Shown here: one piece after another, positions 13,399 to 50,924 of the stretch
Numbering within the stretch: position 1 is the first letter of the stretch
Layout: every line of letters starts with the position of its first letter
From: Candidatus Latescibacter sp.
Lineage (GTDB): Bacteria; Latescibacterota; Latescibacteria; Latescibacterales; Latescibacteraceae
Assembly: GCA_030692375.1 (NCBI GenBank)
Contig: JAUYCD010000054.1
Coordinates: forward strand, 1-55,915
Reading direction: 5' to 3'
DNA length: 55,915 nt
Program-made: the position numbers and the translations under genes
The notes under the pieces: generated by a model
Databases searched by the model: none
The model's input: only the letters and a program-made list of their open reading frames with translations
Told to the model about the DNA's origin: nothing

Positions 13399-13908
13399 TC
13401 AATGAAACAACACAACCCACAGAATGAAACCTGTCAAAGCCAGCAGTGCAATATACCCTGATTGCACGAGAAATGAAAGAAACCTGGCTTTACGAATCCT
13501 TCGTTTCCGGACTAGTGCGCCTTTCTCAAGGTTTCCCTCAAGGACTGTTTCAGCCAGTTTCGAGTCGTATTCATCGATAAGCCTGAGAATGAGACTTTTT
13601 GTGGCGACAACCTGTTCAGCCAGAAGATTATGTGATGATTTATCAGAGGCGGCGGCGCCATTCTGATGTTTTTTAAGAGGATAGGTATCAAGGCTCAACA
13701 AAAGATATGCTTTCAAAATCGCTATCCGGATTTCTGTGACTTTCATATCCCTCCCTTCCTGAACAGATTCACGGAGGATGTTTTCACAGATATCTATAAA
13801 ATTCCGGAGGTTTTGCTGTATTTCCGAATTGCTGAGACTGAGAAGGTAAGATTCCTCGATTACCTCCTCTACCTGCTGCTTGATTCTTTGATCAGTCCAT
13901 TTTCCCAT
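13399..13908 (-). CDS. hypothetical tail-anchored membrane protein
   Basis: 169 aa with a single C-terminal TM segment (FLSFLVQSGYIALLALTGFILWVVLF). AT-richer than its neighbours. No family recognised. Confidence 0.5.
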   Translation of the reverse strand: MGKWTDQRIKQQVEEVIEESYLLSLSNSEIQQNLRNFIDICENILRESVQEGRDMKVTEIRIAILKAYLLLSLDTYPLKKHQNGAAASDKSSHNLLAEQVVATKSLILRLIDEYDSKLAETVLEGNLEKGALVRKRRIRKARFLSFLVQSGYIALLALTGFILWVVLFH

Positions 13909-15404: not shown

Positions 15405-15464
15405 GGGTATTGAAGCCTCCTGTTTATAGAAGACAAAAGAAAAGACAAAAGAATCCTAAAGAAA

Positions 15465-15495
15465 AGATTGTCTGAACCACTAATGCGCGTGATGT
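15465..15495. repeat. family-C short repeat (GATTGTCTGAACCA.TNAT.CGC.TGAT)
   Basis: AAGATTGTCTGAACCACTAATGCGCGTGATG. Related copies lie at 36608..36645 and 55765..55809. Confidence 0.7.
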
Positions 15496-15559
15496 AAATG
15501 ATAAAAGATGATGAAAAGATTACAATCAAAATCCCAAGCACAGAGAGAAAGAAAAGGCT

Positions 15560-15619
15560 CTTTCATCCTTTATCCTTCATCCTTGTCTTTTTTACTTTGT
15601 GCCTTTGTTCTTTTGCGCC
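15560..15619. repeat. family-E repeat (TCATCCTT units followed by a CTTTG(T/G)GCC-type tract)
   Basis: CTTTCATCCTTTATCCTTCATCCTTGTC...TACTTTGTGCCTTTGTTCTTTTGCGCC. The reverse complement of the same motif pair occurs at 36462..36532. Confidence 0.65.
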
Positions 15620-15665
15620 ATTATGCCTTAGAACTTATCCGTAAGGATTTTCACTCGTTTTAAGG

Positions 15666-15784
15666 CAGCCCCCTTCTGGCCTTTCAGGCCACCTTCCCCC
15701 CTTGCGGGGGGCAGGAAAAGCATGTGGCGTCTCAAATTCCCTTGCCCCCATTTATGGGGGAAAGGGATCGAGGGTAAGGGGGCA
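15666..15784. repeat. composite C5/G5 nested-hairpin element (about 119 nt)
   Basis: Outer arms GCCCCCT (15666..) and AGGGGGC (..15784). They enclose the inner hairpins CCCCCC-TTGC-GGGGGG and CCCCC-ATTTAT-GGGGG. The element at 26166..26279 has the same architecture. Confidence 0.8.
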
Positions 15785-15840
15785 TTGAGTAGGTGCAACC
15801 GGCGAATTTCTTATTTACGGACAAGCTCTTAGTTTTTTCT

Positions 15841-17409
15841 TTACAGATCGAATATTGTCTCCGCCTCAATTTCATCGAAAGCCTGAGACAGATTTTCTAA
15901 CACATCTCCGGCCATCACCCCCCGTATACCCATTTCCTCCGAGGCCATCTCTCCGGCCAGACCGTGCACGAAAGCCCCCAGGACAGCGGCGGGGAAAAGG
16001 TCCAGCCCTTGGGCGGCGAGACCGGTGATCGTTCCCGTCAGCACATCCCCGGCTCCGGCTGTTGCCAGGGCCTGGTTTCCGGTCGGATTAAGCCAGACCT
16101 CGCCCGCAGGATTGACAGTCACCGTAGTCGGTCCTTTCAGCAGAACGATTTTCCCCAGTTCAGCGGCTGCCTGTTTCGCTGCGCCGATTGGATCGGTCAT
16201 GATCTCAGCGGCCGGTTTCTCCATCAGCCGCGAAAGCTCTCCGGCATGGGGAGTGAGTACCATATCGCAGGGAGTTTTCGTAAGAGCAGCCCGGTTGTTA
16301 CGGTACGCGTTGATCCCATCCGCATCGAGAATCACTTTGCCCCGGTACTCGTCCAGAAAGCGCCTGACCAGCTCCGAGGTTTCGTAATACGTCCCCAATC
16401 CCGGGCCGACAGCCACCGCATCCATATTTTCCACCGCCTCGCGGATTTTTCCCAGCGCACGGAGGGAAAGGCAGCGTTTTTTTCGGACTTCCGGCAGGGG
16501 GAGATTCATGATTTCGGTTAACTTGACTGCGAGAATATCACTGAGACTCTCGGGGCAGCCCACCCTTACCAGTCCGGCGCCTGACCGCATGGCGGAAGCG
16601 GCGCATAAGGCGGGCGCCCCGGTCATTCCGACCGATCCGGAAAGAATAAAAACCTTTCCGGCTGAATTTTTATGCGCATCGTATGGCCGCACCGGTATGA
16701 GAGCGGCAGCCTCCGACCGTGAAAGTGTATGAGCGAACGGCGCTATCATATCAGACACTTCCAGGGGAAAGCCGATGTCCGCCGCCTGAATGCTTCCGCA
16801 GAAAAAGCGCCCCGGTTTGATTACCATTCCTGCTTTCAGGAACCCGAAGGTCACCGTATAATCGGCCTGCACCGCGGCTTCCGAAACCTGGCCGGTATTC
16901 GAGTTCACACCGGAAGGAATGTCGACCGCCACCACCTCGGCGTGTGCATGATTCACCAACTCCACTACCGCGGCGGCAAGGCCGGTAATCTCTCCCCGGA
17001 GTCCGGTCCCGAAGAGGGCGTCCACAATCACATCGGCGGACTCGATCCGCTCGATGAACAGGCCAAGGTCTTCCTGGCCGTGTATCTCTTCCACTTTCCC
17101 GCCGGTTTTCTCAAGGGCACCGAGACAGGCGAGGGCGTCGCCCCGTACTTCACGCTTTCTTCCGATCAGGAATACATCGGCCGGAATCCCGCTCAACCTC
17201 AGGAGTTCAGCCACCCGGAAACCGTCTCCGCCGTTGTTTCCTTTTCCAGCTAGCACAACCACCCTTTTATCGAATAGATCGGAGTATACTTCAGCCATGA
17301 ATTCACAGACAGCCTTACCCGCCGCCCGCATGAGCTCGATGCCGGGTTTTCCCCACTCGATCGAGCGGCGGTCGATTTCCGCCATCTGTTCGCCGGTGAA
17401 GACTTTCAT
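15841..17409 (-). CDS. nnr: bifunctional NAD(P)H-hydrate repair enzyme (epimerase + ADP-dependent dehydratase)
   Basis: 522 aa. N-terminal YjeF_N motifs (GKGNNGGDG) and C-terminal carbohydrate-kinase motifs (GAGDVLTG). The start overlaps the upstream stop as ATGA. Confidence 0.9.
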   Translation of the reverse strand: MKVFTGEQMAEIDRRSIEWGKPGIELMRAAGKAVCEFMAEVYSDLFDKRVVVLAGKGNNGGDGFRVAELLRLSGIPADVFLIGRKREVRGDALACLGALEKTGGKVEEIHGQEDLGLFIERIESADVIVDALFGTGLRGEITGLAAAVVELVNHAHAEVVAVDIPSGVNSNTGQVSEAAVQADYTVTFGFLKAGMVIKPGRFFCGSIQAADIGFPLEVSDMIAPFAHTLSRSEAAALIPVRPYDAHKNSAGKVFILSGSVGMTGAPALCAASAMRSGAGLVRVGCPESLSDILAVKLTEIMNLPLPEVRKKRCLSLRALGKIREAVENMDAVAVGPGLGTYYETSELVRRFLDEYRGKVILDADGINAYRNNRAALTKTPCDMVLTPHAGELSRLMEKPAAEIMTDPIGAAKQAAAELGKIVLLKGPTTVTVNPAGEVWLNPTGNQALATAGAGDVLTGTITGLAAQGLDLFPAAVLGAFVHGLAGEMASEEMGIRGVMAGDVLENLSQAFDEIEAETIFDL

Positions 17410-18017
17410 AGGGCAACTCCAATTTTTTCGGCAAGGGTGGTAAACAGGCGGTCACAGTGGGGAGCGGCACTACGGACTTTGTTAAGGTCTAATATTTTAA
17501 GAATTTTCGAGGCGTGATGGATTTTATGATATTTCCCTTTATATGAATATCGTGTTGCGGCATTCAATTTAACTCTGATAGTGCCTTTTGTTATGTTCTC
17601 CACACTTGTTGTTCGAGGTAGTTTTTCTTCACGGAAGCCAGTACCGAAAAAGATTTTGAGTGCGTCCCTGTCTGCTAAAAACCATGCTTCCATAATTTGA
17701 ACCATGAGATGACAATGCACATGATGATGGTCCTCAAATAACCATTGATCATGTAATGCGAGATGACTCCACGGGTCAGTAGTCACCCCGATTTCTGAAT
17801 CGACAAGAAGTACATTAAAGGCATCGGGATGGTCTTCCCATGCCGCCATGAAGTCGCGGTATGCATTACCTCTTGTACCACAGGCTACTACAAGTATTTT
17901 CACTTCAGGCATGGTATGCAACTTATTAAAGAAAACGGTGAAACCTTCTCTCATCTGGGCTCTGGATTCCACACTGTCGCCGCCGCCCTCGACATACACC
18001 CTGATTTCTTTCACCAT
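17406..18017 (-). CDS. DUF4276-like protein (possible TOPRIM-like effector partner of the upstream ATPase)
   Basis: 203 aa. N-terminal strand plus an acidic motif IRVYVEGGGD. Central LLVDSE. MEAWFLADRDAL and the C-terminal APHCDRLFTTL match my recollection of DUF4276. There is a 7-nt overlap with the ATPase gene. Confidence 0.65.
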   Translation of the reverse strand: MVKEIRVYVEGGGDSVESRAQMREGFTVFFNKLHTMPEVKILVVACGTRGNAYRDFMAAWEDHPDAFNVLLVDSEIGVTTDPWSHLALHDQWLFEDHHHVHCHLMVQIMEAWFLADRDALKIFFGTGFREEKLPRTTSVENITKGTIRVKLNAATRYSYKGKYHKIHHASKILKILDLNKVRSAAPHCDRLFTTLAEKIGVAL

Positions 18018-19210
18018 CTGTTACCGCCTATCTCGCCCATACGCCACAGTTCACCGAGTGTGTAGTTCTCAAGCCATTTTTTCAGCTTCTTCTGATCAAG
18101 CCTCCTCATATGCGTCCCTTGTTCGTCATGCTCGCAAACCAGTACCGACTCCGGCTGTTCTGAAAGCGCAGAAACGAGAATGTCGGAATGAGTTGTAACA
18201 ATGAGCTGGGTGCGTTTGGATGCTTCTACAAGGAGTTCTGCAACGGTATGGAGAATGTCGGGGTGCAGCCCGACTTCCGGCTCTTCGATACAGATGAGCG
18301 GAGGAGGTGAGGGATGACAGAGAATCAAGAGAAGACAAAGAAATCGCAAAGTACCATCGGACAGACGAGAGGCGGGAATAGGGTCTTTAAGATTTTTCTC
18401 ATTGAAAAGAACTTGGATTATTCCTCCAAATACTTTTGTATGAATCGATTCAAATCTCTCATAAAACGACCGCATCAATTCATTTATTTTTCCAGCGGTT
18501 TCTCGCCTTTCCTTGAGATCATGAGCTATTAGGGCAAAGTTATTTAAACTTTCTAAAAGAAAATCACTAGGCCAATCGGTTTTTTGGGGTTGCTTTATCG
18601 AACTTATTACAACAAAAAGGTCTTTGTATATTTTCGATTCCTGAAGGCTATTTGCAAGTTTTGTTAATTCTGAACCTGAGTGTAGTCCGCCAAACTGGGA
18701 TAATATTGATTTATACAAATGGGGTTCGGGTGCAGGGGATATTCCTGCAAAAAGCTCCGATATACCAAATTCTACTTTCCCATTTTTATTACTGTACAAA
18801 AAATTTCCAATTTCATTCATAACAGTTTCTGTGTCGATATACAGCCTATCAAGTGGGGTTGAGCCGATTCTCAGTGTATAACTAACTATTTTCTTCTCAT
18901 GGGGCTGTATAAAGTCAATGCTCATATTTTCATAGGGTATTATAAAGTCAACACCCATTTCGGCAATTTTTTCACCCTTCCCTTTCCATATCCACTCTCC
19001 TACTCCACCACCCTCTCTCAACGGCATGCTTATATCTCTCGGCGCGGCCTGTAAAATACTTATCGCATTGATGAAATTCGATTTCCCCGAAGCATTTGGG
19101 CCGATGAGAACATTAAGAGGCTTTAAATTTACTGGTTTACTGTCTGGTCCGAATGAGAGAAGATTTTGAATCCATATCGAATTGATAAACCTTGTATCTT
19201 CCATGTTCAT
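18011..19210 (-). CDS. AAA_21/ABC-type (SMC-like) ATPase of the OLD/GajA/PtuA/AriA superfamily
   Basis: 399 aa. Walker A GPNASGKS, signature-like LSDGTLRFL, Walker B/D-loop LICIEEPEVGLHPD, H-loop LIVTTHS. No TM segment and no permease partner. Visibly AT-rich coding sequence. Confidence 0.8.
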   Translation of the reverse strand: MNMEDTRFINSIWIQNLLSFGPDSKPVNLKPLNVLIGPNASGKSNFINAISILQAAPRDISMPLREGGGVGEWIWKGKGEKIAEMGVDFIIPYENMSIDFIQPHEKKIVSYTLRIGSTPLDRLYIDTETVMNEIGNFLYSNKNGKVEFGISELFAGISPAPEPHLYKSILSQFGGLHSGSELTKLANSLQESKIYKDLFVVISSIKQPQKTDWPSDFLLESLNNFALIAHDLKERRETAGKINELMRSFYERFESIHTKVFGGIIQVLFNEKNLKDPIPASRLSDGTLRFLCLLLILCHPSPPPLICIEEPEVGLHPDILHTVAELLVEASKRTQLIVTTHSDILVSALSEQPESVLVCEHDEQGTHMRRLDQKKLKKWLENYTLGELWRMGEIGGNRW

Positions 19211-19914
19211 TCTCCCTTCGTTCCGTTCAGTTCATCGATGATGGCGAGTATCTCCCGGATGTCATCGATCACATACTCCGCGCCTTCTTTCCCCACTGAC
19301 GGGCGGTCGAATACGAAGCCGTAGCGGGCGAATATGGTGTGCATTCCCACTTCGCGCGCCCCGACCAGGTCGCGTTCAGGCCAGTCCCCGACCATGATGG
19401 TATCCTGGGGCTCGCAGTCGATCGTTGTGAGCACCTTGCGGAAAGTGATAGGGTGAGGCTTCTTATACCCCGTATCCTCGAACGTGATAACCGAATCGAA
19501 AACATGCTGCAACTGGAGGTAGCACACCCGCAGCCAGGCCTCACGGCAGGGGGCGTCGGAGAGCACTGCAAGTTTCAATCCCCTTCGGAGAAGCCCGGTC
19601 AGAGTCATGTTTACATGAGGGTAGAGAACGAGTGATGCCTCGCGCGCCCGTCGATATGCCACCACGCCGCTCGACAGAATCTTGAAGTCTATATACCCCA
19701 GGTGCTCCTGGAGAAAGTTGTCGAACACCTTTTGAAACTCGATGCCCTTCTTGTCATAAATGGCATAAAGCTCCCGTTTGGCTTCTTTCGGGTCCATGAC
19801 CAGTCCGGAGTCGATCATTGCGGTGACCGCGGCGGTGATGGCGCTCTCCTTCATGGCCATGAAATCCATGAGCGTGTTATCCAGGTCAAAAACCACTGCC
19901 TTGATCATGCGCAT
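19207..19914 (-). CDS. HAD-superfamily hydrolase (phosphoglycolate-phosphatase-like)
   Basis: 235 aa. Motif I VVFDLDNTL, motif IV-like MVGDWPERD. Confidence 0.8.
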   Translation of the reverse strand: MRMIKAVVFDLDNTLMDFMAMKESAITAAVTAMIDSGLVMDPKEAKRELYAIYDKKGIEFQKVFDNFLQEHLGYIDFKILSSGVVAYRRAREASLVLYPHVNMTLTGLLRRGLKLAVLSDAPCREAWLRVCYLQLQHVFDSVITFEDTGYKKPHPITFRKVLTTIDCEPQDTIMVGDWPERDLVGAREVGMHTIFARYGFVFDRPSVGKEGAEYVIDDIREILAIIDELNGTKGE

Positions 19915-47614: not shown

Positions 47615-47833
47615 GGCCTGCCCCGCGACCAAGAATTAAAGGGATCATTTCGAACAAAATACATTATTTTATGAAATTACTATACTAATTTTTTTCCACA
47701 GTACTATTCCCGGAATTGACGGGGATTCCCCCGGTTTTAGCTCTCCTTTCCGCAATATCCTTCGTCCTCTTATACTGAAATATATGCAGAAAATGAGCAG
47801 ACGTCAACTGTTATCTCTATATATTACAAGTAT

Positions 47834-48208
47834 TTATGCATTTTTCAGGAAAGCCTCATTTATTACAGTTTTCGATACGTCAACAAGCCAATTATTCAGG
47901 CTTTTTCCGGATTTACTTGCTTCAATACATAACTTATGATGTAATTCGGACGGGATCCGTAAAACAAACTTGCCGGAAAATGGTTTTTCAGGCTTTTCGC
48001 CGCGTTCACAGCAGGATGAGAGATAATCATCGATGGATTCTCGGAAAGCAGCCTCTATCTCATAAACCGTGGTACCGTGGAAAGTGATTACATCTTTCGT
48101 ATCAAGTTCGCCGTGGAATACTTTCGCTTCATCATCATATTCAACACGCCCGGTATAGCCTTTATATTTAAAACGACTTTTGAAAAAGGCTCTGTTGAGA
48201 AGATACAA
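47834..48208 (-). CDS. hicB: HicB-family antitoxin (N-terminal HicB fold + C-terminal RHH-like DNA-binding tail)
   Basis: KYKGYTGRVEYDDEAKVFHGE and GKFVLRIPSELHHKLCIEASKSGKSLNNWL are typical of this family. Only a TTG start is available. I found no HicA ORF upstream. Confidence 0.7.
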   Translation of the reverse strand: MYLLNRAFFKSRFKYKGYTGRVEYDDEAKVFHGELDTKDVITFHGTTVYEIEAAFRESIDDYLSSCCERGEKPEKPFSGKFVLRIPSELHHKLCIEASKSGKSLNNWLVDVSKTVINEAFLKNA

Positions 48209-48311
48209 ACAGAAACCGGGATGGCAACTCTTTTTGCATGTTATTTATATTCAGAAGGTTTTTATCTGATTGAAAATTAAGTCATTGTAGTAAATGCTTC
48301 CGGTTGTTGCT

Positions 48312-49391
48312 TTAATCATATTTCTTTGGCCGGGGTTTGAAAGGGATGACATTATCTCGTCTCCCTTCAGGTTCGTCACCTTCATCTTCCTCATCGAACT
48401 CATCGGGAAAAGGTTCAACATGGCGAATCCCTGCAGCCTCATCTCTATCGTCTTCCTCATTGAATCCCATAGATAGTTCTTCTCGCGGTTCCTGCGCCTC
48501 CCATTCCCTGAGCTTCTTCCTGGCCCGGAAGCGCTTGATGACATAAACCACCAGGAACAGCACCCCAATGAGCACCCAGGTTCCCGGAACCAGAGTAAGG
48601 AGAGTCTTGGGGCCGTAATTCTCCCGGAGATATTTCAGGTACTCCTTTTCGAACTCGCTGGGCCAGAAACCGGTTGCGTCACGGAGCGCCTGGGGAAATT
48701 CCCGGCCTCGGCTCATACCATCAAGGATTGCGGGGAGTACCCTGGGTCCGAAAATGGAAATCAGCCGCTGCACCGCGATCATGGACTGATCATAGGCGAG
48801 GCCGGCGTCCAGGCTCCCGGCGGTGAATACATTCTGGATGTCCTCAAAAGTGAGCAGGTTCCCCCGCGAGACCTTCCAGACCATGTACATTTCGTTCTTT
48901 ATACCCCACTCGCCGGAATAAATCTGCGCGCAGCCCTCATGGAACCACCGCGGTACAAAGCCGTCCCCGGCGCTCTCCTCGATGATGACATGCACAAGCT
49001 CATGGGCCAGAATGCGCTCGATCTCTATCTTGTGCCCGGCAAGGGGGGAAACCACGATCCTTCGCCCGGTCAGCGCAACCGCGGCGCTCCAGTCCGGCAG
49101 CCTACCCTCGGTTAGAGCGTTGAACTGCGCCTGTCTGGCGGTCAGTGTAATTGCCACCTTTCCTCCCGGAGCATGCCCCAGCACCTGGGTTATGCGCGCC
49201 AGGTTCCGTTCACCCGCATCCGCCACATTCCGGGCGTACCTTTCGCTCAAGCCGTCATAGGTGACGGTGAAATGGGGAGTAGTGATGGTTTCCGAGAAAG
49301 ATACAGAAGGGAGATGCAGACAGATAATGGCGGAGAAGAGGAGTAAGAAGCGTATCATAAAATTTTCCGGGGCGACAATCAACGTATTCAA
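48312..49391 (-). CDS. peptidase MA-like zinc metalloprotease with a C-terminal TM segment and an acidic cytoplasmic tail
   Basis: 359 aa. Signal/anchor at the N-terminus. HELVHV (HExxH) plus a downstream WFHEGCAQ. TM segment TLVPGTWVLIGVLFLVVYVI, then an acidic tail (DEFDEEDEGDEPEG). Confidence 0.7.
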   Translation of the reverse strand: MNTLIVAPENFMIRFLLLFSAIICLHLPSVSFSETITTPHFTVTYDGLSERYARNVADAGERNLARITQVLGHAPGGKVAITLTARQAQFNALTEGRLPDWSAAVALTGRRIVVSPLAGHKIEIERILAHELVHVIIEESAGDGFVPRWFHEGCAQIYSGEWGIKNEMYMVWKVSRGNLLTFEDIQNVFTAGSLDAGLAYDQSMIAVQRLISIFGPRVLPAILDGMSRGREFPQALRDATGFWPSEFEKEYLKYLRENYGPKTLLTLVPGTWVLIGVLFLVVYVIKRFRARKKLREWEAQEPREELSMGFNEEDDRDEAAGIRHVEPFPDEFDEEDEGDEPEGRRDNVIPFKPRPKKYD

Positions 49392-49455
49392 CGCCTTAAC
49401 ATAATAAAATTGCCCGGAAATTTCAAATCATACATTTTAAACTCACCCCCTTGAT

Positions 49456-49483
49456 CCCCCTCTCTTACAAGTAACAGAGGGGG
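49456..49483. repeat. C5/G5-type hairpin CCCCCTCT-N12-AGAGGGGG
   Basis: Read directly. It belongs to the same C-run/G-run hairpin style as 15666, 26166, 30469 and 46966. Confidence 0.6.
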
Positions 49484-49558
49484 AAACCCCTGTTTACTTT
49501 ATAAGTAAATTGAGATAATGGAACTTACGGATTAAGTTGAAGAGCTCTTGGTTTTTTT

Positions 49559-49804
49559 TCACCATATCTCTTTCCCCACTGGTGGCCCAAAATCAATTTC
49601 TGGATGAAGGTTTTCCGGAGTGACTCCATCAAGCATGTCCTTAAGAGTCTTTTTCTTTTGGATGGGAGTCAAAACAAGACTGTTTCCTTCGACACTGATA
49701 AGAACCTCTGTGTTTTCTTTCAGATTCAACTGCTCGGAAGTGGTCTTTCGAATTCTAATTCCCAGGCTGTTACCCCATTTCTGGATTTTTAAATGAAATA
49801 TCAT
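49559..49804 (-). CDS. AbrB/MazE/SpoVT-family antitoxin-like protein
   Basis: 81 aa. The IQKWGNSLGIRI swapped-hairpin motif is typical of MazE-type antitoxins. No full-length toxin gene follows. Confidence 0.7.
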   Translation of the reverse strand: MIFHLKIQKWGNSLGIRIRKTTSEQLNLKENTEVLISVEGNSLVLTPIQKKKTLKDMLDGVTPENLHPEIDFGPPVGKEIW

Positions 49805-50003
49805 ACCACCCTCCTATAATATGCATTGTATATACTATTTCAAGGAATCTTTGCAAGTTTTTTTCAGAATAATTTCTCATAAAAAGTGGTACAGGTTGTC
49901 CTATGAAGCCGAGTTGTCTCGGCTATATCTCGACAATATAAGGAAAATATTTAATCTTATTCATCCCCGACGCAAACATCATTGAATTCGATATTTAAGA
50001 ATT

Positions 50004-50720
50004 TCAATCAAAAACACCAGTATATTGGCATCTACAAAAACCTCTTTCATCATCATATTGTTTGTGAGTGCATTCTTTGCATGGGATTGGCATCTTTTCC
50101 AATGCTTCTTCAATTGTAAAAACTTTCCCATTTAATTTTTGACATGCTTCACAAGAATTTGTACCCATGGTATTTATTTTTACTTTTTTTGTTATTCCAC
50201 TTTGTTTTTCATGTAATAAATACATTTCCGCTGCACTCTTTAGCAAATGGAAACAATCTCTTCTTTCTCTATTACAGAATAATGCCATTTGATAATATAT
50301 TATATATAATTCTCCCAATTCATTATTTTTAATTTTTTTCATAATAAGTTCATTAAATAATGACCATATAACATCTCTATCATTTGCTTCCGATGTTAAT
50401 TTTATAGTAAGTTCTTTCTTGCGTTTATCATATTCTTTTTCTGTTATTCCATAATTACCCAATAGTTGCATTATACTTTTTCTATAATTTATCTTATCCC
50501 ATTCCATTTCAATTTTCTTAGCATCATTTTCAGTTACTAATACCTTCTTTTTGTTTGTTGGCAATGTTCTCACATAAATAAAATTGTTACAGAAAGGACA
50601 TTTCTTCTTTCGTGTAGGCTTTTGTTCAAGAATATTTTTGCAATATGGACAAATTGACTTCAAATCAGTTTCATTTTCACTTATCTGATTTGAGAATATC
50701 TTTTTAAAAAAATTTGTCAT
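50004..50720 (-). CDS. hypothetical zinc-ribbon protein, very AT-rich gene
   Basis: ATG at 50720 preceded by AAAGGAGAG. N-terminal CPYC-x15-CPFC ribbon. C-terminal CEACQKLNGKVF-x13-CKEC-x13-FCRCQY resembles the Cys motif at the end of Phage_Mu_F/SPP1-gp7-type domains (resemblance only). Its composition differs strongly from its neighbours. Confidence 0.55.
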   Translation of the reverse strand: MTNFFKKIFSNQISENETDLKSICPYCKNILEQKPTRKKKCPFCNNFIYVRTLPTNKKKVLVTENDAKKIEMEWDKINYRKSIMQLLGNYGITEKEYDKRKKELTIKLTSEANDRDVIWSLFNELIMKKIKNNELGELYIIYYQMALFCNRERRDCFHLLKSAAEMYLLHEKQSGITKKVKINTMGTNSCEACQKLNGKVFTIEEALEKMPIPCKECTHKQYDDERGFCRCQYTGVFD

Positions 50721-50924
50721 AGTTGCTCTCCTTTGGGTTGTTTGAAGACATGTATTTTTCATTTCTTTGGTTGAGGGTAGATAAAATTGCTTTATAATTA
50801 TAAATTTATAAACAATATTTGTCAATGGTTTTTATATATAATCAAAAGAGGCCCGCCCACCTCCAAGCGAGCCTTTCTTTTATCCGCGTCAATCCGCGAA
50901 ATCCGCGGCTAATCTTTTTCCCCC

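Follow-up and report, generated by a model that had tools for sequence, protein, structure and literature searches.

A HEC-01-type ATPase/DUF4276 gene pair in a core operon of Latescibacterota is a candidate chromosomal conflict module

The stretch of Candidatus Latescibacter sp. DNA analyzed here (contig JAUYCD010000054.1 of assembly GCA_030692375.1, positions 1 to 55,915, i.e., 55,915 nt; hereafter the window) contains two overlapping open reading frames (ORFs) on the minus strand, 18011-19210 (399 aa) and 17406-18017 (203 aa), which encode an ABC-type ATPase and a DUF4276 protein inserted into a housekeeping operon. By sequence, the pair is an unambiguous member of the catalogued candidate anti-phage system HEC-01, and its alleles are exchanged horizontally at a fixed chromosomal position. 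By analogy to related systems, we consider it probable (about 0.6) that the two genes form a HEC-01-type chromosomal conflict module, in which an ABC ATPase sensor would control a Toprim nuclease effector. A sequence-only reading of the same DNA had proposed a PARIS/OLD-like conflict system at this place, and the two ORFs, the four ATPase motifs and the DUF4276 motifs that it quoted are all present. The features of the module are as follows.

18011..19210, minus strand: HEC-01A-type ABC/SMC-like ATPase (Pfam AAA_21, 5e-37; PADLOC HEC-01A PDLC04177, 2.6e-135)
19079..19102, minus strand: Walker A GPNASGKS, aa 37-44, conserved throughout the Latescibacterota alleles
18611..18970, minus strand: hypervariable ATPase insert, aa ~81-200, of low identity; candidate trigger-sensing region
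18344..18364, minus strand: ABC signature LSDGTLR, aa 283-289; R-L-S-D-G invariant in an alignment of 52 sequences
18257..18298, minus strand: Walker B/D-loop LICIEEPEVGLHPD, aa 305-318; EEPE invariant in the 52-sequence alignment and the Latescibacterota alleles
18185..18199, minus strand: H-loop VTTHS, aa 338-342, conserved in the same two sets
18014..18130, minus strand: ATPase C-terminal tail, aa 361-399, co-varying with the DUF4276 allele group
18011..18017, minus strand: 7-nt overlap ATGGTGA of ATPase stop and DUF4276 start (translational coupling)
17406..18017, minus strand: HEC-01B-type DUF4276 protein, 203 aa, predicted Toprim-fold nuclease effector (Pfam DUF4276 over the full length, 1.1e-21; PADLOC HEC-01B PDLC04201, 4.3e-72)
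17976..17996, minus strand: YVEGGGD, aa 8-14, with Glu10 after strand 1 at the position of the Toprim catalytic Glu; E10, G11 and G13 invariant in 54 sequences
17793..17810, minus strand: LLVDSE, aa 70-75, with Asp73 and Glu75 after strand 3 as DxE for the Toprim DxD; in the 54-sequence alignment, and kept in all Latescibacterota alleles
17670..17693, minus strand: MEAWFLAD, aa 109-116, conserved acidic patch; M109 and E110 in at least 90%, W112 and D116 in all of the 54 sequences
17406..17449, minus strand: last ~45 nt of the DUF4276 gene with the nnr ribosome-binding site and the ATGA overlap; putative recombination breakpoint at ~17449

PADLOC files the pair as HEC-01, with profile matches spanning both proteins: residues 7-399 of the ATPase align with positions 3-393 of the 393 of HEC-01A, and residues 1-199 of the small protein with positions 1-200 of the 202 of HEC-01B. 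The genes are adjacent, co-oriented and overlapping by 7 nt, which is the arrangement of HEC-01. Lower-scoring PADLOC models on the ATPase were AriA (PDLC02980, 4e-36, and a second AriA model, 5e-20), mad3 (1.6e-25), NsnB (1.4e-17), AbiLi and Old; the small protein matched only the DUF4276 and HEC-01B models and no AriB/DUF4435 model. HEC-01 (Hma-embedded candidate 01) was introduced with PADLOC-DB v2 as an ABC ATPase, not of the AAA+ type, together with a Toprim-like protein sharing the metal-binding site of OLD (Payne et al., bioRxiv 2024, 10.1101/2024.01.29.577857), and a study of cold-seep microbes lists it with the most abundant candidate systems (PMC12881386). Moreover, published work adds DUF4276 to the Toprim superfamily, as a new member to which Mad4 of the MADS system is homologous (PMC12065111), and the structural work on PARIS counts MADS3-4 among the ABC-ATPase/Toprim systems (PMC11464382). 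The pairing, for which the sequence-only reading knew of no experimentally assigned function, is thus already catalogued and has a proposed fold, and two tests of it have given differing outcomes (10.1101/2024.01.29.577857; PMC12881386), so that its novelty is not upheld.

For the ATPase, further matches were obtained with Pfam AAA_15 and SMC_N. Its AlphaFold2 model (predicted local distance difference test score, pLDDT, of 90.1) resembles SMC heads (Foldseek, E = 1e-14) as well as PtuA of the retron Ec78/Eco7 complexes, OLD, GajA and Rad50 (~1e-11 to 1e-13; OLD nuclease 6p74, 4.7e-12), and the model thereby confirms a fold of the ABC and not of the AAA+ type. Pfam, PADLOC and Foldseek consistently support the earlier view of a stand-alone ABC/SMC-type ATPase from the AAA_21 group, to which the ATPases of OLD, Gabija, Septu and PARIS belong.

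The family proposed for the small protein in the sequence-only reading proved right by Pfam. Its AlphaFold2 model (pLDDT 94.3) has a beta-alpha-beta-alpha-beta-alpha-beta core, with strands at residues 4-9, 40-45, 67-72 and 102-104 and alternating helices. The acidic residues placed on this model follow a Toprim-type pattern in which DxE replaces DxD; D73 occurs in all of the 54 aligned sequences and E75 in at least 90% of them. Support for the expected TOPRIM/OLD-like fold from the structure search was weak: the Thermus OLD nuclease 6p74 is the best fold match in the PDB, but at E = 0.066 and TM 0.40. When 54 family members were scanned with Pfam at relaxed settings, no second Toprim-clan family was detected, and a Foldseek search of the DUF4276 protein against a viral structure library gave nothing significant. 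Altogether, Toprim membership is consistent with the data gathered here and supported by the literature.

The pair is flanked on both sides by host genes:

19207..19914, minus strand: HAD-family hydrolase (Pfam HAD_2, 1e-22), upstream flank outside the module
15841..17409, minus strand: bifunctional NAD(P)H-hydrate repair enzyme Nnr (Pfam YjeF_N and Carb_kinase), downstream flank

The window as a whole is of housekeeping character, with argC, argB, argD, a PMT_2 glycosyltransferase, argG, argH, GNAT, HAD, the pair, nnr, pyk and carB, and also glnE and gltB. Homologues of nnr carry the name Candidatus Latescibacterota, and the neighborhoods of such relatives were recovered by exact-protein look-ups. 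Longer contigs share the order argG-argH-GNAT-HAD-ATPase-DUF4276-nnr-pyk-hyp-carB with the same gene overlaps, and at least ATPase-DUF4276-nnr is seen on short ones. At least eight relatives carry the pair at exactly the HAD/nnr slot, with nnr proteins 95% (L012), 93% (L093), 83% (the JGI contig carrying P0003), 78% (L007), 62% (L010/L011), 61% (L003/L004) and 58% (L002) identical to that of the window. In at least three others HAD is directly followed by nnr (L008/L009, nnr 76% identical; L174, GCA_042572165.1, 59%; the 447-kb contig carrying P0165, 57%), as had been predicted for an insertion. These observations support an insertion into the housekeeping operon that is polymorphic for presence and absence at its slot. 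The sequence-only reading of a module spliced into the operon holds to this extent, but not as a simple recent event, as the slot is also filled in relatives whose nnr is just 58-62% identical.

At the empty junction of L008 (L008:5545-5610; likewise in L009), there are stretches similar to the beginning of the ATPase gene (ATGA..ACATGG) and to the final ~20 nt of the DUF4276 gene (GAAAAA..GAGGTTGCCCC). Although short, these matches are suggestive of a secondary deletion. The HAD protein of both loci has a slightly longer, different C-terminus (…NEKHGQIFEK), owing to this deletion-scar-like junction. In a further, 55%-identical relative (L005:599-3561, and L006), an insertion sequence (IS) element consisting of a DDE_3 transposase and a helix-turn-helix gene lies between the ATPase and DUF4276 genes, and both ORFs of the pair persist despite it. 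The DUF4276 gene of this relative shares 4 nt with the class I/II aminotransferase gene that follows it, which again couples it to a gene of housekeeping type.

Simple vertical inheritance, which the shared synteny had first suggested, was dropped, since the divergence of L007, L012 and L003 is incongruent with that of their hosts. In the host-gene tree the window groups with L007 and L008, i.e., (window, (L007, L008)), and L002, L003 and L010 are deep branches. The DUF4276 protein of the window is nevertheless 74% identical to that of L003 and 66% to that of L002, versus 45% for L007 and 47% for L010 (L007 and L010 share 44%). Neighbor-joining bootstraps recovered a first DUF4276 group (window, L093, L003, P0003, L002) in 200 of 200 replicates and paired the L007 protein with that of L012 in 169 of 200, and a single clade of all Latescibacterota DUF4276 proteins appeared in none of the 200. 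The ATPases of all four Latescibacterota loci fell into one clade of 9-13 sequences in every bootstrap. The L007 and L010 effectors were also considered as imports from other phyla, which was not established; their nearest match, P0106, occupies the same slot in Latescibacterota.

Two comparisons, in which neighboring genes serve as internal controls, carry the argument for exchange. Between the window and its close relative L012, nnr differs by a synonymous divergence (dS) of 0.20 (95% amino acid identity), versus a dS of 1.39 and 50% identity for DUF4276. DNA identity is ~0.94 over nnr, drops at ~17449 from 0.97 to 0.40-0.67 through the DUF4276 body, returns to 0.70-0.90 at the ATPase C-terminal core and is again 0.60 further upstream. 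The opposite holds for the distant L003, where nnr is saturated (dS 2.6, ~0.61 nucleotide and 61% amino acid identity) and the block of DUF4276 and ATPase C-terminal tail is 0.79-0.89 identical in DNA (dS 0.72). From these two comparisons, the pair is therefore a recombining, polymorphic cassette, with alleles replaced in near-conspecifics and shared across distant lineages. In line with the breakpoint near 17449, the DUF4276 C-terminus KIGVAL is common to alleles that are otherwise 45-50% identical, and the empty L008 site holds a comparable remnant.

The variation is unevenly distributed along the ATPase. Among the Latescibacterota loci, aa 1-80 and 281-360 are conserved (identity 0.57-0.97), whereas aa 81-200 reach 0.03-0.43, even toward L007 with its 78% identical nnr; window and L007 DNA falls to 0.39-0.44 identity in this insert. 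The C-terminal tail is 0.85-0.97 identical to that of the window in loci with group-1 DUF4276 (L002, L003, L093, P0243), versus 0.62-0.79 in L007, L010 and L012, and could either form the partner interface or belong to the same recombination block as DUF4276. The candidate sensor insert and the effector are replaced as mosaics between close and distant relatives, presumably via homologous recombination in conserved flanks and the ATPase core. All Latescibacterota alleles keep Walker A, Walker B, the H-loop, E10, DxE and ME(A/S)W, with intact ORFs in every locus examined, and the ratio of nonsynonymous to synonymous substitution rates (dN/dS) of the pair is 0.09-0.33. Because of these intact motifs and low ratios, the genes are regarded as functional and under purifying selection.

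The pair is also distinct in base composition, as the sequence-only reading had noticed by eye: its GC content is 0.42 versus 0.55 for ~15 kb of flanks, and GC at third codon positions (GC3) is 0.39-0.41 versus 0.61-0.72. In every Latescibacterota locus the GC3 of the pair lies within 0.30-0.43, while that of the housekeeping genes ranges from ~0.42-0.55 (L007/L008) over 0.61-0.72 (window) to 0.75-0.83 (L002) despite identical gene order. Of 78 loci from other phyla, 70 have a pair that is lower in GC than its flanks (mean difference -0.047); there, the pair largely tracks the host GC, as in a Corallococcus example with 0.60-0.65 versus 0.71-0.73. The largest deficit seen is that of Latescibacterota (-0.13 in the window, about -0.2 in L002), and part of it can be attributed to repeated exchange among lineages. 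The conservation of the slot touches an objection anticipated in the sequence-only reading, namely vertical conservation next to nnr combined with host-like composition. However, the pair never has a host-like composition, and its alleles move horizontally; for these two reasons the reading as a conflict system survives.

Mechanistically, the module would join an SMC/Rad50-like ATPase, through translational coupling, to a DUF4276 protein whose Toprim-type site is formed by Glu10 and Asp73-x-Glu75. By analogy to PARIS AriA/AriB, OLD and the retron-Septu PtuA, an oligomer of the ATPase could hold or regulate the small nuclease, and the hypervariable insert (aa ~81-200) could recognize either a trigger derived from the phage or some disturbance of the cell. 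The Toprim effector would then be licensed by ATP binding or hydrolysis to cleave tRNA or DNA, by which phage replication would be blocked or the infection aborted. Experimental support for defense comes from one HEC-01 representative, which gave E. coli B protection from one or more of the phages T4, T5 and T7 (PMC12881386).

Several points weigh against this reading. The positive report is brief, covering a single representative and three phages and discussing the AAA_21 domain alone (PMC12881386), and the representative of Payne et al. gave E. coli no protection against the phages tried (10.1101/2024.01.29.577857). No PDB fold matched the DUF4276 model at E ≤ 0.001, and sequence and profile searches of the protein against the PDB returned no solved relative; because of these weak or empty searches, the Toprim assignment draws on motif positions and published analyses. 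Across the family, neighbors are mostly housekeeping genes rather than defense islands, with a handful of 74 downstream neighbors matching defense models. Searches with tblastn found no homologues on 72,556 plasmids and 50,697 phage genomes, which is unusual for mobile defense genes. The module is hence chromosomal and solitary, and not a passenger of islands or mobile elements. The long stay in a core operon would also be compatible with a domesticated cellular role.

Such a role is the first of the alternatives to be weighed. An SMC/RecF-like ATPase and a Toprim protein could have the DNA or RNA of the cell itself as substrate, e.g., in repair or in the surveillance of plasmids and foreign DNA, and be expressed together with core metabolism as a domesticated genome-maintenance module. 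RecF-RecR and JetC-JetD are formal analogues of an ATPase plus Toprim pair of this kind. The fixed position in a housekeeping operon over deep Latescibacterota divergence and the coupling to nnr speak in favor of maintenance, as do the scarcity of defense neighbors, the empty plasmid and phage searches, the purifying selection and the frequent adjacency of mutS described below. The pair is, however, dispensable, being missing from the related genomes named above, and alleles diverged by 50% in near-conspecifics, a hypervariable insert and a host-incongruent phylogeny would be unexpected for housekeeping genes. As a HEC-01 system has in addition been protective against phage (PMC12881386), we regard a maintenance function as unlikely.

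The distribution of the family bears on the same question. At 50% identity, the DUF4276 family comprises 1,712 clusters (E ≤ 1e-3) and extends over cyanobacteria, large sulfur bacteria, Desulfobacterota, Chloroflexota, Acidobacteriota, Myxococcota and other groups. The order of ATPase and then DUF4276 with a 7-nt overlap is near-universal among the family loci, and of 80 loci from other phyla, most show this overlap in the form ATGGTNA. Full-length mutS (MutS domains I-V) accounts for 16-18 of the 74 downstream neighbors, in cyanobacteria, and HmaC for one. The mutS gene lies ~100 nt downstream of the pair and in the same orientation in, among others, L015, L016, L018, L026, L037, L038, L041, L042, L047, L049, L052, L058, L064, L084, L087 and L089. 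This adjacency may reflect a functional link to DNA repair, or one arrangement inherited within related cyanobacteria, and in the latter case the support it lends to maintenance might come from a single event.

An alternative option is a selfish, toxin-antitoxin-like addiction cassette, in which the ATPase would restrain a Toprim toxin, loss would be lethal and the host would gain no net benefit. Pfam describes AAA_21 as putative AbiEii toxin of a type IV toxin-antitoxin system, the tight gene overlap fixes the stoichiometry, and the pair persists at one slot although it is compositionally foreign and exchanged horizontally between lineages. Nevertheless, the clean losses in L008/L009 (scar-like, with intact flanking genes), in L174 and on the P0165 contig argue against lethality of loss, both ORFs of L005/L006 persist although separated by an IS element, and a hypervariable surface insert rather points to a changing external ligand. 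We therefore think it improbable that addiction explains the pair, and it should be noted that addiction and abortive defense are mutually compatible. Recent, decaying or neutral transferred DNA without current function, to which the AT-richness relative to the flanks might point, is effectively refuted by the intact ORFs with all catalytic motifs in every locus examined, by the dN/dS values and by the same slot being filled in hosts at saturated synonymous divergence.

Compared with described systems, the pair resembles HEC-01 most closely, with the same two proteins in the same order and full-length model matches. It differs in context: HEC-01 was discovered within an Hma system, which is a circumstance of its discovery and no requirement of the model, and the pair described here lies inside an arginine/nnr/pyk/carB operon, bordered by HAD, GNAT, argH and argG and, at its other end, by nnr, pyk and carB, with no Hma genes in these flanks. 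With PARIS (AriA ABC ATPase and AriB of DUF4435; PMC11464382) it shares an ATPase of the AAA_15/21 family and a separate small effector of the Toprim superfamily, and a common logic, in which an ATPase scaffold senses the trigger and frees the nuclease, is plausible by analogy. The effector is DUF4435 in PARIS and DUF4276 here, and PARIS usually resides on phage satellites and prophages, whereas the HEC-01 family was unmatched in the phage and plasmid collections searched. The tRNA-Lys target and Ocr trigger of PARIS should consequently not be assumed for this pair. In MADS, according to two papers (PMC12065111; PMC11464382), Mad4 is a DUF4276 homologue and Mad3 an AAA_21-type ATPase; the window pair, by contrast, stands alone, with no methyltransferase or other mad genes among the annotated genes of the window. 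OLD nucleases and GajA likewise join an ABC ATPase to Toprim chemistry, which is predicted for the window pair. They do so in one fused protein rather than two genes and with the canonical E...DxD instead of E...DxE, and no GajB-like helicase adjoins the pair. Finally, Menshen includes NsnC variants with a C-terminal DUF4276 domain as predicted Toprim effector next to the ABC ATPase NsnB (PMC12065111), but it is a three-gene system (NsnA/B/C), and neither NsnA nor NsnC is found here.

Membership in four other systems was considered and rejected. MADS was discarded as NCBIfam MAD3 (NF047739) scored 88 bits, short of its 420-bit cut-off, and mad genes were missing among the annotated genes of the window, PARIS as the DUF4435 model was unmatched and AriA models scored far below HEC-01A, and Gabija as ATPase and Toprim lie on separate genes with no adjoining helicase. 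PD-T4-4, initially suspected to be an ATPase/DUF4276 pair, was set aside as the literature places its nuclease in the PD-(D/E)xK group.

Regarding the gene boundaries, the 7-nt overlap within the pair and the ATGA overlap of the DUF4276 stop with the nnr start are real, and the latter is retained in relatives. The ATGA overlap that the sequence-only reading also saw between HAD and ATPase hinges on a start at 19210 (399 aa). The ATG at 19204 (MEDT..., 397 aa) is the more likely start, since it is preceded by a GGGAG Shine-Dalgarno sequence 7 nt upstream and agrees with the starts of orthologues (MED) and with a database gene call of 397 aa; the HAD/ATPase overlap is therefore probably unused. 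From 19204 the ATPase opens 2 nt past the HAD stop, so that both genes remain tightly coupled. The claimed lack of tRNA and integrase boundaries was confirmed: an Rfam scan gave no tRNA or other family anywhere in the window, and no integrase or transposase is among its annotated genes. A scan for promoter- or terminator-like sites around the pair revealed no excess over shuffled sequence.

Elsewhere in the window, an AT-rich gap of 436 nt between nnr and pyk (15405-15840), without an Rfam match or a convincing promoter or terminator, is the sole sizeable non-coding gap within the arg-nnr-pyk-carB stretch (13.3-26.4 kb). No Pfam family was matched above threshold by an ORF of 169 aa between pyk and carB (13399-13908, minus strand; GC 0.43), which has a hydrophobic C-terminal segment. 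This ORF keeps its place in all examined Latescibacterota relatives with long enough contigs, and the window and L002 versions are only ~35% identical. A second AT-rich accessory islet at 47800-50900 contains ORFs of 124 aa (47834-48208) and 81 aa (49559-49804), which may be related to antitoxins of the HicB and AbrB/MazE types. The same islet harbors a Cys-rich ORF of 273 aa (50004-50825), without a Pfam match, in the kilobase of lowest GC in the window (0.31).

Going one step further, and quite tentatively, the HAD/nnr junction could be a defense hotspot without mobility genes that is kept purely by homologous recombination. Insert and effector would be shuffled as separate cassettes, with crossovers in the ATPase core and the flanking core genes, and the low GC3 would be maintained rather than mark a recent arrival. 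As ideas for such lasting AT-richness, weak expression would be selected for a toxic effector in a strongly expressed operon, or the alleles would escape GC-biased gene conversion. If true, a foreign-looking composition would be a stable trait of some resident immune genes and not a transfer clock. The AT-richness itself, stable over hosts of very different GC, cautions against using composition as evidence of recent transfer.

With the locus described here, a phylum without cultured members joins the range of an abundant, barely characterized ABC-ATPase/Toprim system, in a fixed core-operon slot without mobility genes. Its natural mosaics delineate candidate sensor and interface regions. From the parts that vary independently, namely the insert (aa ~81-200) on the one hand and the effector with the ATPase C-terminal tail on the other, it can be hypothesized where HEC-01 has its sensor surface and its partner interface. 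In view of their long residence without hallmarks of mobile elements, systems of this kind would be missed by island-based and guilt-by-association screens.

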